Assembly: GCA_028704885.1 (NCBI GenBank)
Contig: JAQWEN010000001.1
Coordinates: 587,107 to 651,106 of the forward strand
Source of the DNA: Candidatus Shapirobacteria bacterium
GTDB taxonomy: Bacteria; Patescibacteriota; Microgenomatia; UBA12405
Length of the DNA stretch: 64,000 nt
Reading direction: 5' to 3'
This document shows positions 57,243 through 61,116 of the stretch, piece after piece. Under the pieces are notes generated by a model that saw nothing but the letters and a program-made list of their open reading frames with translations, had not been told where the DNA came from and ran no database searches. The position numbers and the translations under genes were made by a program. Every line of letters begins with the position of its first letter. Within the stretch, counting starts at the first letter, position 1.

Positions 57243-58664
57243 TTAGTAGCTTTGTGCAAATAGCCAACGATGTTTTGACGGCTGTCCACAGTGAATACAA
57301 ACTCCAGCTTCATCTTTTTGACCATCAGGAAGACAACGAGTAGTGGCTTTAGTTTCTTCTTTAATTTTTGCCTCACAATCGGCAGATTCACACCAATGAG
57401 CGGAAATAAAACCACGAGTGGTGGACATTATTTTTTTGAATTCATCATAAGAATCAACTGAAAAAGTATTATCTTGAGTAAATTTCTGGTGCTTTTCTAA
57501 TAGATTGCTTTGGATGTCAATTAAAAGTTGATCAATAGTTTTTTCCAAATCGGCAATTTTGACAGTTTGTTTTTCTAGAGTGTCGCGACGGACAACAACA
57601 GCTGAATCAATATCGGCTTCTTTATCGCCTATTTCTAGACGAATAGGAACACCTTTCATTTCCCATTTATTAAATTTAAAACCAGCAGTTTCACCGGCTA
57701 AATCATCAATTTGAGAACGATATTTTGATTTTAATTGATCAAAAATAGAATTAGCTAATTTAATAGCTTTTTCATGGCCAGGAATTGGAACTATAACTAA
57801 TTGAGTTGGAGCAATTTGAGGAGGAAAAACTAATCCATTGTCATCCCCATGAACCATAATTAAACCACCGATTGATCGAGTGGAAAGTCCCCAACTGTTT
57901 TGATAAGGATAAAGTTTGTCACCATTTTGATCTTGAAGCGACCAATCAAAAGATTTGGCAAAATTTTGACCAAGATCATGAGAAGTACCAGCTTGAAGAG
58001 CTTTGCCATTTGGCATTAGGACTTCAATAGTATAAGTTTTGCTAGCACCACCAAATTTTTCTGTTTCACTTTTAATACCAGTAACACCATACATGGCCAA
58101 AAGATCGGAATAAGTTTTTTTATAAAGATTTAAAGCCCATTGAACCATTTCTTGATTTTCTTGGTCGGTGGCATGGGCACAATGACCTTCCTGCCATAAA
58201 AATTCAGTGGTTCTTAAAAAGAGATAAGTGCGTTGTTCCCAACGAACAACATTACACCATTGATTCATCATGACTGGTAAATCGCGCCAAGATTGAGTCC
58301 ATTTTTTGTACATTTCGTACATGATGGTTTCAGAAGTAGGACGAACAATTAGTTTTTCGGTTAATTCTTGACCACCACCGATAGTGACAATGGCTAATTC
58401 AGGGGCAAAACCAGCAACATGTTCTTTTTCTTTTTTTAAAAAACTTTCAGGAATAAACAAAGGAAAATAGGCATTTTGAACACCTTTTTCTTTGATAAAT
58501 TTATCCATAAAACTTTGGATTCTTTCCCAAATGGCATAACCATAAGGACGAATAACCATACAACCTTTGACTGGGGCATAATCGGCCAATTCGGCCTTAA
58601 CCACAAGATCGTTATACCACTCTGATAAGTCTTCGGATTTTAATTTTATGAATTTTTTAGTCAT
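57243..58664 (-). CDS. proS: proline--tRNA ligase (archaeal/eukaryotic-type, 473 aa)
   Basis: Class II aaRS motifs; no INS editing domain; C-terminal zinc-binding domain. Confidence 0.88.
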   Translation of the reverse strand: MTKKFIKLKSEDLSEWYNDLVVKAELADYAPVKGCMVIRPYGYAIWERIQSFMDKFIKEKGVQNAYFPLFIPESFLKKEKEHVAGFAPELAIVTIGGGQELTEKLIVRPTSETIMYEMYKKWTQSWRDLPVMMNQWCNVVRWEQRTYLFLRTTEFLWQEGHCAHATDQENQEMVQWALNLYKKTYSDLLAMYGVTGIKSETEKFGGASKTYTIEVLMPNGKALQAGTSHDLGQNFAKSFDWSLQDQNGDKLYPYQNSWGLSTRSIGGLIMVHGDDNGLVFPPQIAPTQLVIVPIPGHEKAIKLANSIFDQLKSKYRSQIDDLAGETAGFKFNKWEMKGVPIRLEIGDKEADIDSAVVVRRDTLEKQTVKIADLEKTIDQLLIDIQSNLLEKHQKFTQDNTFSVDSYDEFKKIMSTTRGFISAHWCESADCEAKIKEETKATTRCLPDGQKDEAGVCIHCGQPSKHRWLFAQSY

Positions 58665-58729
58665 GAGTGATTATAGCTTAAGAATTTAAGTTTCGCTTTA
58701 TATTAGTATAGACGTTGTTTATGTTATTA

Positions 58730-59353
58730 GTAGAGACGCCATGCATGGCGTCTCTACATTTATTATTTTTTATAATATTTATCTTTGTTCCAGTTTTTAA
58801 TATTATTTTTAATATATTGTTTGATGATTAAATACTCTTTTTCATTTTGAATAATGTGGTCATGAAAACGGGGTTGCCAGGAAAAAAATATGGTTTTTGG
58901 ATTTATTTGACGAGTAGTGGCGGATTTAAATTGTTTTATTACTAATGGAATTGTTTGAGAAGAACGAATAGCTATTCGATGATAATAATAATTATTGTAT
59001 TTTATTGATAGAGACGCATCATGATGCGTCTCTACTGAATTTGACAATGGTTTTGATAGGTTTAATAGTATATGAACATGATTTGGCATAACAATATATT
59101 CATTTAAAATTACATTTGAAAAATGTTTTGGAATATTAATTAAACATTGATTGGTAATAATTCCCATTTTTGATAATTCCATTTTATTGTTAATAATTTT
59201 TCCAAAGAAATTATTATGATTGTAGGTGCAGATAGTGATGAAATAAAATCCAGGAGTAGAATAATCCCAATTTAATAAGCGAGATGATTTTAATTTAAAT
59301 TTGTCAGCAAATTTGGTTGGATTATCGACAAGTGCCATATATGGCGTCTCTAC
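58730..59353 (-). mobile_element. IS200/IS605-family-like minimal element: Y1 HuH transposase gene flanked by GTAGAGACGCC-containing palindromes
   Basis: 28 nt perfect palindrome 58730-58757; partial copy 59334-59353; see the CDS below. Confidence 0.6.
58763..59338 (-). CDS. tnpA: HuH Y1 transposase (IS200/IS605 TnpA / REP-associated tyrosine transposase-like)
   Basis: HuH motif PNHVHILL; C-terminal QPRFHDHIIQNEKEYLIIKQYIKNN resembles the RAYT QRRFW(D/E)H motif. Confidence 0.7.
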   Translation of the reverse strand: MALVDNPTKFADKFKLKSSRLLNWDYSTPGFYFITICTYNHNNFFGKIINNKMELSKMGIITNQCLINIPKHFSNVILNEYIVMPNHVHILLNLSKPLSNSVETHHDASLSIKYNNYYYHRIAIRSSQTIPLVIKQFKSATTRQINPKTIFFSWQPRFHDHIIQNEKEYLIIKQYIKNNIKNWNKDKYYKK

Positions 59354-59367
59354 AATATAAAATTATT

Positions 59368-61116
59368 TTATACTTCGATAACTAAGGGTAAAACCATGGG
59401 TTGGCGGCCGGTTTTCTTGTAGATAATCTCTTCAAGAAAAGCTTGGATTTCTTCACGAATGAAATCCATGTTGGCTGGGGAACTGGTGGCTTGATTAAAT
59501 TTATTAGTAATTTCGAGCTTTAAAAAGTCGATAAGCTCGGTGTTTTCTTTCATAAAGACGAAACCTCGACTTAAAACGACCGGAGCTTTAACTAATTTAC
59601 CGGATTCTTTTTCAATCAAGAGAACAACAGAAAACATGCCATCTTCGGCGAGAGTTTTTCGGTCTCTTAAAACAGTGGTACCAACATCACCGACTCCAAA
59701 TCCATCAATTAAAACTTTTCGAATAGAAATATGGAAATTAGTGTCGACAGCGCCATTGCTATGAAAAGTGGCCGAAGCATCAAAATCGGGTAAAATTACC
59801 TGTTCTTCGGTATAACCTAATTTTTTAGACATTTGTTGATAATCTTTAAGATGTCGATAGTTACCACCGATTGGCAATAAAAATTTTGGTTTTAATAAAT
59901 TAATTAAAAGAGCATGTTCTTTTTGGTAACCGTGACCGGAAACGTGTAATTCTTCTTTTTCACCATAGACCACTTCAGCTCCCATTTTAGAGAGAAGATC
60001 GATCATATTGTAAATGTTAGAAGTTGTGCCAGGAATATAATCTGGAGAAGAAAAGATGACTTTATCGCCAGCTTTTACTTTTATTTTGTGTTTACCCATG
60101 ATCATTTTACTGAGAGCCGAATCTGGTTGACCAGCAAAGCCGGCAACTAAGAAAAGCAATTTGTTTTCGTTGAAGTTTTTGACTCTTTCGACGGGAACGA
60201 TATCAGTATCGTTTAAAGTTAAATAACCTAAATCTTTGGCAATTTTAATAGCTCGATCGACAGAAAAGCCGACAATAACTATTTTTCGACCAACACTTTT
60301 GCCGTATTCAATGGCTTGAGTCCAACGAACAATATTACTGGAAATTGAAGTAACAAAAACGCGACCTTTAGCGGAAACAATTTCTTGTTTAAAATTTTGA
60401 GCAATAGAAGATTCTGAAGGCGACCAACCTTCTTTATCGGCACCTAAACTATCCGACATTAAGGCAATGACTTTACCAGTTTGACCAACTCGAGCTATTT
60501 TTTGATAATCAGCGCCTTTGCCGTCTAGTGGAAATAAATCAAATTTGAAATCAGAACCATGGTAAAAAATACCCATAGGAGTAGTGATGGCAAAATGAAA
60601 AGTATCAGGAATGGAATGAGTAACGCGAATTGGGTCAATAATAAAAGGACCTTTGGTTATAGGTAAGGTGGTTTCATCATAAACCTGAAGATTAGCGCGG
60701 ATTTGAACTTCACCGAGTCGGGCTTCAATAAAAGCAGCCGCTAGTTTAGGAGCGTAAACTGGAATATTTTGGCCTAAAATCGGCAGAATAAAACGGACAG
60801 CTCCAATATGGTCTTCATGGCCATGAGTAATAAAAATACCTAAAATTCGGTCTTTTTTGTCTTGTAAATAATGAGTATCGGGAATTTGAAGATCGACACC
60901 AAAGGCATCTTCTTCAGGAAAACCGACTCCACAATCAACGATAATAATTTGACTTTTGGCAAGATCGCCATTGGGAATGAACTCATAAACAAACATGTTT
61001 TGAGTGACATCGCCAAAGCCCCCGAGGGAGCTGATTCGCACCGAATCATTACCGGATTTGTATTCTCGGACTTGATTTGGAGCATTAATAAAATTTGTGT
61101 TTTGATTTTTTAACAT
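59368..61116 (-). CDS. rnj: ribonuclease J
   Basis: Metallo-beta-lactamase HGHEDHIG + beta-CASP + RNase J C-terminal domain, 582 aa. Confidence 0.88.
   Translation of the reverse strand: MLKNQNTNFINAPNQVREYKSGNDSVRISSLGGFGDVTQNMFVYEFIPNGDLAKSQIIIVDCGVGFPEEDAFGVDLQIPDTHYLQDKKDRILGIFITHGHEDHIGAVRFILPILGQNIPVYAPKLAAAFIEARLGEVQIRANLQVYDETTLPITKGPFIIDPIRVTHSIPDTFHFAITTPMGIFYHGSDFKFDLFPLDGKGADYQKIARVGQTGKVIALMSDSLGADKEGWSPSESSIAQNFKQEIVSAKGRVFVTSISSNIVRWTQAIEYGKSVGRKIVIVGFSVDRAIKIAKDLGYLTLNDTDIVPVERVKNFNENKLLFLVAGFAGQPDSALSKMIMGKHKIKVKAGDKVIFSSPDYIPGTTSNIYNMIDLLSKMGAEVVYGEKEELHVSGHGYQKEHALLINLLKPKFLLPIGGNYRHLKDYQQMSKKLGYTEEQVILPDFDASATFHSNGAVDTNFHISIRKVLIDGFGVGDVGTTVLRDRKTLAEDGMFSVVLLIEKESGKLVKAPVVLSRGFVFMKENTELIDFLKLEITNKFNQATSSPANMDFIREEIQAFLEEIIYKKTGRQPMVLPLVIEV

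Follow-up and report, generated by a model that had tools for sequence, protein, structure and literature searches.

A probable subclass 2.4 REP-associated tyrosine transposase with palindromes around and within its gene, inserted between rnj and proS in a Candidatus Shapirobacteria genome

We analysed a 64-kb window (the whole stretch of DNA under study, whose positions serve as coordinates throughout) from a metagenome-assembled genome of Candidatus Shapirobacteria, members of the Candidate Phyla Radiation (CPR), in which a small gene for a REP-associated tyrosine transposase (RAYT or TnpA_REP) lies together with several repetitive extragenic palindromes (REPs) between the genes rnj and proS. 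The TnpA_Y1 family to which such enzymes belong has been split into subclasses by Quentin, Siguier, Chandler & Fichant 2018 (BMC Genomics 19:475, PMC6006769), and their subclass 2.4 corresponds to RAYT group 4 of Bertels. Proteins of this subclass combine the HuH motif NH[IFV]H with WQ and YIxNNP, the last in keeping with the general class 2 Tyr signature Y---NP, and they have a median length of 194 amino acids (aa) and a variable insertion between beta3 and alphaC (PMC6006769). The cognate REPs are of the "long, double foot" type with 5' GT[AG]G and 3' C[TC]AC, and they not only flank the gene but also sit in frame inside it, in the interval from the HuH motif to the Tyr, where they have been proposed to be copies in a tolerant surface loop (PMC6006769). 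An in-gene REP is in this sense an already published hallmark of subclass 2.4 and is not peculiar to the locus described here. Group 4 RAYTs are further characterized by only ~14 copies of their flanking 16-mers per replicon (Bertels et al. 2017, PMC5581495).

Binding of single-stranded REP DNA and its cleavage at CT, which need both GTAG and the catalytic Tyr, are known for the Escherichia coli enzyme only (PMC3479197). In this TnpA_REP of subclass 2.2 (Protein Data Bank (PDB) entry 4ER8; Messing et al. 2012, Ton-Hoang et al. 2012), Y115 is the catalytic Tyr and N119, at position Y+4, a metal ligand (PMC3479197), and the region equivalent to WQPRF recognises the GTAG guide (PMC6006769). The transposases of IS200/IS605 elements (TnpA_IS200, subclass 1.1) have the HuH motif DH[VI]H, the Tyr motif Y[IV]ENQ (Y-x-x-x-Q), and a core of ~150 aa only (PMC6006769). 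Palindromic repeats that lie in frame in genes and give rise to surface peptides have also been described as intragenic REPs (Di Nocera et al. 2013) and as Rickettsia palindromic elements (Ogata et al. 2000).

Here, we conclude that the locus in the window is very probably a subclass 2.4 RAYT gene with its cognate double-foot REPs, i.e., a REPtron, which was inserted into the rnj-proS spacer and which carries an internal REP in a variable loop of the encoded protein. The sequence-only reading that preceded this analysis had described an IS200/IS605-like HuH transposase with a RAYT-like C-terminus; the protein is indeed a HuH/Y1 enzyme and a RAYT, but it does not belong to a classical IS200/IS605 insertion sequence. 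Homologues were compared as an alignment of 50 proteins, as the 120 closest protein clusters, and as 80 loci fetched from GTDB genomes (1.3 Mb). The features of the locus are as follows.

58678 to 59362, minus strand: inserted cassette (REPtron) of RAYT gene and REPs, 685 bp at the widest estimate, with empty sites in three relatives (L210, L085, and L088)
58763 to 59338, minus strand: RAYT (TnpA_REP) gene, 191 aa, very probably of subclass 2.4 (open reading frame; Pfam Y1_Tnp; best NCBIfam match REP_Tyr_transpos; 4er8_A by AF2 and Foldseek; motifs as in Table 1 of PMC6006769)
59072 to 59083, minus strand: HuH motif N86-H87-V88-H89 (P85, N86, H87, and H89 invariant in the 50 homologues)
58865 to 58879, minus strand: W motif W154-Q-P-R-F158 (aligned to residues 94–98 of 4er8; W154 and Q155 invariant)
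58802 to 58816, minus strand: Tyr motif Y175-I-K-N-N179 (Y175 and N179 invariant and aligned to Y115 and N119 of E. coli TnpA_REP)
58730 to 58757, no strand assigned: flanking REP on the 3' side, a double-foot palindrome GTAG...CTAC with its 28 nt intact (DNA hairpin −13.8 kcal/mol, z −8.35)
59008 to 59035, no strand assigned: internal REP, in frame and coding for V102–L110 (VETHHDASL), perfect from 59009 to 59034 (hairpin −11.1 kcal/mol, z −7.3; in a loop with pLDDT <50; identical in L081)
59334 to 59353, no strand assigned: 5' half REP that has lost its second arm and contains the ATG start, reading GTAGAGACGCCATATATGGC on the coding strand (no stable fold; in L214, the homologue has a related remnant, ACGCCATAAT, on its upstream side)
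58706 to 58716, no strand assigned: what is left of one more REP arm (GTATAGACGTT), in the interval from the 3' REP to the proS promoter (repeat D10)
59363 to 59370, minus strand: left flank of the insertion site, made up of the rnj stop codon and AATAA (TAAAATAA), which abuts the proS promoter directly in L210
58665 to 58677, minus strand: right flank of the insertion site, GCTATAATCACTC, with a −10-like box just upstream of the proS ATG (comparison of spacers with relatives)

The RAYT open reading frame (ORF) encodes NHVH at residues 86–89 and WQPRFHDHII at residues 154–163, and the residues P85, N86, H87, H89, W154, Q155, Y175, and N179 are invariant in the alignment of 50 homologues. E. 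coli TnpA_REP is the only PDB match by sequence search, with the WQPRF segment and Y175 of the window protein aligned to W94–F98 and Y115 of 4er8. In an AlphaFold2 (AF2) model with a predicted local distance difference test score (pLDDT) of 77, the top Foldseek match in the PDB was again 4er8_A, the E. coli enzyme bound to a REP hairpin (E 3.9e-6, TM 0.52/0.59), followed by the TnpA proteins of ISDra2 and IS608, and the Pfam family Y1_Tnp (PF01797) was matched above its cutoff (25.4 bits vs 23). The segment QPRFHDHII, earlier singled out as a RAYT-like C-terminus, is present, but it constitutes the W motif and not the Tyr motif; a catalytic Tyr, the presence of which had been made a test of the transposase assignment, does appear on alignment as the invariant Y175 in QYIKNN. 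By homology, Y175 is predicted to be the catalytic residue and N179, the Asn at Y+4, a metal ligand.

Residues 100–111, which contain the palindrome-coded peptide, form a loop with pLDDT <50 between the strand 87–94 and the helix 117–126, and the segment from NHVHIL to IKQFKS is hypervariable in length among the homologues. The suspicion that VETHHDASL might be an insertion is thereby answered, with the peptide placed in the length-variable beta3-alphaC loop. Since NHVH, WQ, the length of 191 aa, and the variable beta3-alphaC insertion all match Table 1 of PMC6006769, and YIKNN matches the Tyr motif there up to its last residue, we assign the ORF with high confidence to subclass 2.4, i.e., RAYT group 4. 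The window locus agrees with the published picture of this subclass in NH[IFV]H, WQ, Y-I-x-N-N, a length close to ~194 aa with the beta3-alphaC insertion, a double-foot REP within ±1000 nt, and an in-frame REP between the HuH motif and the Tyr. The likeness extends to the REPs themselves, which have the double-foot form GTAG...CTAC and the GTAGAGAC core, both flank and enter the gene, and are low in copy number; Table S1 of PMC6006769 lists REPs with the identical GTAGAGAC...GTCTCTAC core, flagged there as double foot. The window locus differs from the published subclass 2.4 REPtrons in its CPR host, as the published set comes mainly from Cyanobacteria and Bacteroidetes, in its truncated 5' REP that holds the start codon, and in a cassette that can be recognised as inserted by comparison with close relatives.

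With E. coli TnpA_REP the window protein shares the fold, the HuH motif together with a single Tyr and the Asn at Y+4, WQPRF, and a gene flanked by its own REPs, and it is predicted to share the GTAG-footed hairpin type of substrate. However, the two proteins are only ~18% identical, the E. coli REPs are imperfect, bulged hairpins with one 5' foot that occur in hundreds of copies and never in the gene, and the inhibitory C-terminal tail of the E. coli enzyme (E161) has no clear counterpart in the window protein.

Three palindromes had been located at the locus from the sequence, together with the reading of the internal one as VETHHDASL, and both observations hold. The 3' palindrome GTAGAGACGCCATGCATGGCGTCTCTAC (58730–58757) is perfect with 14+14 nt and starts 5 nt past the RAYT stop codon, and the internal palindrome TAGAGACGCATCATGATGCGTCTCTA (59009–59034), perfect with 13+13 nt, lies inside the ORF, extending on the coding strand to a 28-nt GTAG...CTAT with a single foot base mutated. 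When folded as single-stranded DNA (ssDNA), these two full copies are stable (z −8.4 and −7.3, respectively). The 5' copy GCCATATATGGCGTCTCTAC (59334–59353) overlaps the RAYT ATG and consists of one arm and the centre only, with a DNA fold of −3.1 kcal/mol (z −1.45) that is not stable; the description of the gene as flanked by perfect palindromes is thus correct for the 3' side, whereas the 5' side has a half copy. A fourth REP arm, at 58706–58716, is decayed. The palindromes of the RAYT locus are the sole long perfect G+C-containing palindromes in the window, and the 10-mer GCGTCTCTAC, with up to 1 mismatch allowed, has 5 matches in the 64 kb, all at the RAYT locus, against 0.74 expected (0/100 shuffles reach 5). 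We regard the 28-nt GTAGAGACG...CGTCTCTAC palindromes, as part of the same explanation, as most probably the cognate double-foot REPs of the RAYT enzyme. Chance or a codon artefact as the origin of the internal palindrome was discarded in view of the shuffles, the uniqueness in the window, and the conservation in homologues, and a known RNA family was likewise discarded, as an Rfam search of both strands of the whole window returned no family at gathering thresholds.

In another reading, the palindromes would have no relation to the gene and be either common transcription terminators or sites of the restriction type (as CGTCTC is, of type IIS). The 3' palindrome does look terminator-like on the plus strand, with a T-rich tail after it, but this strand is antisense to all local genes, no T-run follows on the sense strand, and the motif is absent from the remaining window. 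Moreover, in the 80 GTDB loci, which span several phyla, 82/99 hairpins are found in the RAYT gene or ≤300 bp away from it, corresponding to a 62-fold enrichment (17/99 are farther than 300 bp), the flanking copies co-vary with the internal copy of the gene, and Table S1 of PMC6006769 includes the core of the palindrome among the REPs. Enrichment and co-variation refute the terminator or restriction-site interpretation, to which we give next to no credence, and they tie the palindromes to the RAYT gene. As a separate observation, the plus strand from 58730 to 58767, where the 3' REP is followed by ATTTATTATT, scores as intrinsic-terminator-like and could block antisense transcription into the RAYT gene.

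The cassette of RAYT gene and REPs, ~0.66–0.69 kb in size, is an insertion into the rnj-proS spacer, since this spacer is empty and only 18–35 nt long in close relatives. Relatives with an RNase J 88–92% identical to that of the window have the same gene order (AAA/Lon-lid, rnj, proS, ftsK), with rnj-proS spacers of 35 nt in L085 and 24 nt in L088. The closest relative with the proS type of the window, L210, has an 18-nt spacer, TAAAATAAGCTATAATCACTTATG, in which TAAAATAA is joined directly to GCTATAATCACTTATG, whereas in the window TAAAATAA is followed by 685 bp and then by GCTATAATCACTCATG. Comparison with L085 narrows the insert to ~59353 to ~58691 (~660 bp) and puts its start at, or no more than ~9 nt from, the GTAG foot of the 5' REP. 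The proposed minimal element between proS and rnj is thus real, and the empty site that was to be looked for in relatives was found in L085, L088, and L210, but its size is ~660–685 bp instead of ~630 bp. The alternative suggestion that the internal palindrome is a target-derived scar fails, as no sequence resembling the palindrome exists at the empty sites of these three relatives and inheritance with the gene accounts for the internal copy.

The closest RAYT homologues are located at other sites, namely between mgsA and GIY-YIG/ogt (P0002, P0003, and P0008) and between mscL and queA (P0010). At L214:2956-3600, a 68%-identical RAYT cassette lies antisense between queA and mscL with an 11-nt overlap with the queA stop, and only its internal REP is intact; the mscL-queA spacer of L084 (1447–1471) is empty with 23 nt. 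Of its flanking REPs, L214 has kept no more than remnants, which are of the GCCAT type also found in the window. DNA homology between the window and the aligned cassettes at the mgsA site (L081 and L084) is limited to the coding sequence (CDS). In L081, where an 80%-identical homologue occupies another genomic site, the internal REP is identical to that of the window, including the CTAT foot, from which we conclude that the internal REP moves or is inherited with the gene.

This polymorphism is also what could be expected from an autonomous insertion sequence of the IS200/IS605 type, with the hairpins as left and right subterminal ends and the 0.7-kb element moved by the peel-and-paste ssDNA pathway. 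The Y1 HuH fold is related to that of the IS608 and ISDra2 TnpA, for which ssDNA hairpin recognition is the predicted common trait, the element is small with hairpins near both ends and inserted cleanly at three intergenic sites in related genomes, its left boundary and the GTAG foot of the 5' REP are no more than ~9 nt apart, and the GCCAT-type flanking REP remnants are common to the window and L214 cassettes. Nevertheless, we consider this interpretation very improbable. The window protein has the class 2 motifs (NHVH, WQ, and Y-x-x-N-N, here YIKNN) and 191 aa with a loop insertion instead of the DH[VI]H and Y-x-x-x-Q of TnpA_IS200, which acts as an obligate dimer and has no hairpin in its gene, whereas the best structural match of the window protein is the monomeric TnpA_REP. 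IS200/IS605 elements are multicopy with near-identical copies, often carry tnpB, and have subterminal hairpins that differ between the left and the right end, along with guide and target (cleavage) tetranucleotides; here, the same self-complementary REP family is found at both ends, the cassette has no tnpB and is neighboured by rnj and proS, and it is a single copy in the 64 kb (one tblastn match). The DNA homology between cassettes at different sites is furthermore confined to the CDS and short REP remnants.

Several points weigh against the assignment to a subclass 2.4 REPtron with a working enzyme. REP_Tyr_transpos (NF047646, an equivalog) is the sole NCBIfam match and scores 43.7 bits, below its cutoff of 80, and the Tyr motif Y175-I-K-N-N-I180 keeps the Y, the I, and both N but ends in Ile instead of the Pro of YIxNNP; in the closest clade, this final position is P, V, I, or A. 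The literature examined gives no biochemistry for any subclass 2.4 enzyme. Unlike the published REPtrons, the window, i.e., 64 kb of a 735-kb contig, contains no REP copies outside the cassette by either motif search or palindrome scan, while REPs are classically defined as dispersed repeats. With a 5' REP that lacks one arm and an internal copy with a mutated foot base, the window copy may also lack a functional set of substrates.

The last two points are those expected of a decaying relic, in which a cassette inserted earlier now harbours an inactive enzyme and REP system and the palindromes are functionless leftovers. Besides the 5' REP that does not fold, a further REP arm is reduced to a remnant, and the internal copy has an altered foot, which matters in that the E. 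coli enzyme no longer binds once GTAG is changed in any way (PMC3479197). On the other hand, the ORF is intact with all of the invariant catalytic residues (H87, H89, W154, Q155, Y175, and N179) kept, the 3' REP is perfect, the internal REP retains on the coding strand GTAG and the CT of the 3' foot, and the CTAT change is common to the 80%-identical homologue and hence long tolerated. A relic is possible but, in our judgement, rather unlikely, and the partly decayed copy in the window may still be mobile.

The distribution of the internal REP was compared among relatives, of which there are >546 in GTDB genomes, including Bacteroidota, CPR, Nostoc, Ignavibacteria, and others. The palindrome can be translated in two open frames, giving VETxxxASL or xRDVxxxVST, while the third frame would give TAG. 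Peptides of these two types are present in 114/120 of the closest homologue clusters, with 116/122 occurrences located between HuH and WQ, and some of them, VETPCMASL and VETPYMASL, are exact translations of the flanking palindromes of the window. A double-foot REP is found at nt 246–349 of the gene in 48/80 GTDB loci, or in 62/80 under relaxed criteria. Across phyla, the outer 8–9 bp of the REPs are conserved, whereas the inner 5–6 bp differ by fully compensated changes. The internal copies vary together with the flanking ones, with inner stems that are identical in 10/16 loci vs 2.6 expected (P<1e-4). The sequence-only reading had raised the possibility that the hairpin recognised by the element is nested as a copy inside the gene, and this idea is supported both by these relatives and by the published description of subclass 2.4 (PMC6006769). 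As to a recombination breakpoint at the REP between the N- and C-terminal halves of the gene, the correlation of pairwise identities did not drop across the boundary (0.25 for N2-C1 vs 0.23 and 0.11 within the halves) in what is a noisy test. Carriage by phages was dropped as an explanation, with 1 relative only among 2.9 million viral contigs.

Such conservation raises the question of whether selection maintains the internal palindrome in subclass 2.4 RAYT genes, despite the decay of flanking copies, as a cis-element, for instance an autoregulatory DNA or mRNA hairpin, a self-target of the enzyme, or a portable "seed" REP that carries the substrate along with the moving gene. The same position is occupied in RAYTs of many phyla at only 33–59% identity, the REP is nearly universal in the closest clade, and it travels with the gene; the perfect palindrome is kept while the inner 5–6 bp change by compensatory pairs and in step with the flanking copies, and the internal REP is best preserved where the flanking copies have decayed (the window, L084, and L214). 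However, copy number (0 to 3 or more), frame (two), and exact loop position differ among homologues, a pattern compatible with REPs repeatedly inserted or duplicated in a tolerant loop, and the internal REP is absent from 18–32 of the 80 loci. Gene conversion from flanking copies would equally preserve a perfect palindrome, and identical REPs lie in frame in TatD, Vsr, and MmeI-like genes, where such a role is implausible. Selection is therefore, in our estimate, unlikely, and the internal REP is most simply understood as a copy tolerated in a surface loop, as PMC6006769 proposes. Compared with intragenic REPs and Rickettsia palindromic elements in general, the difference is that the host gene in the window encodes the very enzyme for which the repeat is the presumed substrate and that the site is conserved family-wide.

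In an inverse test, 120 metagenomic contigs were picked solely by the outer 9+9 nt of the palindrome, and 121/135 of their hairpins had no RAYT on the contig (the contigs being mostly short), so that the hairpin does not predict a nearby RAYT. The result is compatible with the 62-fold enrichment around RAYT genes and indicates that double-foot REPs are dispersed in other genomes, where they also enter genes. Metagenomic REPs were often in frame in unrelated genes, in agreement with the account of GTAG REPs in general by Di Nocera et al. (2013). These 28-nt GTAGAGACG...CGTCTCTAC palindromes were seen in frame as VETxxxASL or xRDAxxRVST at L111:3261-3288, L114:666-693, L113:171-1520 (four copies), and L140:6553-6580; the invaded genes encode a TatD DNase, a Vsr endonuclease, an MmeI-like type IIG enzyme (DUF7149/DUF7814; four copies), and a Por_Secre_tail protein of the type IX secretion system (T9SS).

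The palindromes are symmetric through their very centre. Among 70 unique 28-mers (L090–L209), complementarity reaches 81% and 77% at the two central pairs vs 25% by chance and is as frequent there as at the outer variable pairs. Hairpin stability alone does not explain this symmetry, because a hairpin cannot pair its central bases. The pattern may mean either that the arms were copied from each other, i.e., an origin by hairpin replication (snap-back), or that the functional form is a symmetric duplex or cruciform DNA. In REPs of 29 nt, which also occur, a single central base is free and differs among the copies of one locus.

By homology with E. coli TnpA_REP, the RAYT of the window is predicted to be a single-domain HuH/Y1 endonuclease-ligase for ssDNA. 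A REP exposed on ssDNA would fold into a hairpin, which the protein would bind together with the 5' GTAG foot; both His of the HuH motif and N179 would hold a divalent metal, and Y175 would cleave at a CT dinucleotide to form a 5'-phosphotyrosyl link, after which the strand could be rejoined to another 3'-OH, so that REPs would be moved or copied. In double-foot REPs, the CT could be supplied in cis by the 3' foot CTAC, which would pair with the GTAG guide such that CT lies opposite A3-G4, and this pairing leads us to infer a cleavage site within every REP itself. The internal palindrome is most probably a REP copy lodged in frame in the length-variable loop between beta3 (with the HuH motif) and alphaC, where it is translated into a disordered surface peptide, and it is inherited together with the gene.

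The neighbourhood of the cassette showed additional peculiarities. The proS gene of the window (57243–58664, minus strand) encodes a family-I prolyl-tRNA synthetase (archaeal/eukaryote-like, TIGR00408), while the relatives with the 88–92% identical RNase J have at the same rnj-proS-ftsK position a family-II proS that is only 23% identical, and other relatives have family I (compared loci: L085:6779-8026, L087:7062-8762, and L210:4001-5422). It looks as if, within Candidatus Shapirobacteria, an essential gene adjoining the RAYT cassette had been displaced in situ by a non-orthologous one. In three relatives (L087:6750-7016, L211:3688-3954, and L212:408-674), the rnj-proS spacer contains a different insert with an 88-aa ORF on the opposite strand, for which no Pfam or NCBIfam match was found, and the spacer looks like a hot spot where small sequences are inserted. 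The box GCTATAAT (58670–58677, minus strand) is only 5–6 nt upstream of the proS ATG, and the same holds for L085, L087, L088, L210, and L211. Since this distance leaves no space for a ribosome-binding site, it suggests that proS may be expressed from a leaderless mRNA.

While current views are not overturned, the range of subclass 2.4 is extended to a small Candidatus Shapirobacteria genome of the CPR. In related genomes, the cassette of RAYT gene and REPs is cleanly present or absent at three intergenic sites, an argument for the continued movement, as whole units, of at least a part of the "domesticated" RAYT cassettes. Testable hints on how REPs originate and are maintained come from the internal REP, as the best-conserved copy, and from the symmetry of the palindromes through the centre, and if true, a selected in-gene REP, or the copying of arms or a symmetric functional form, would change the picture of how RAYTs and their REPs persist.

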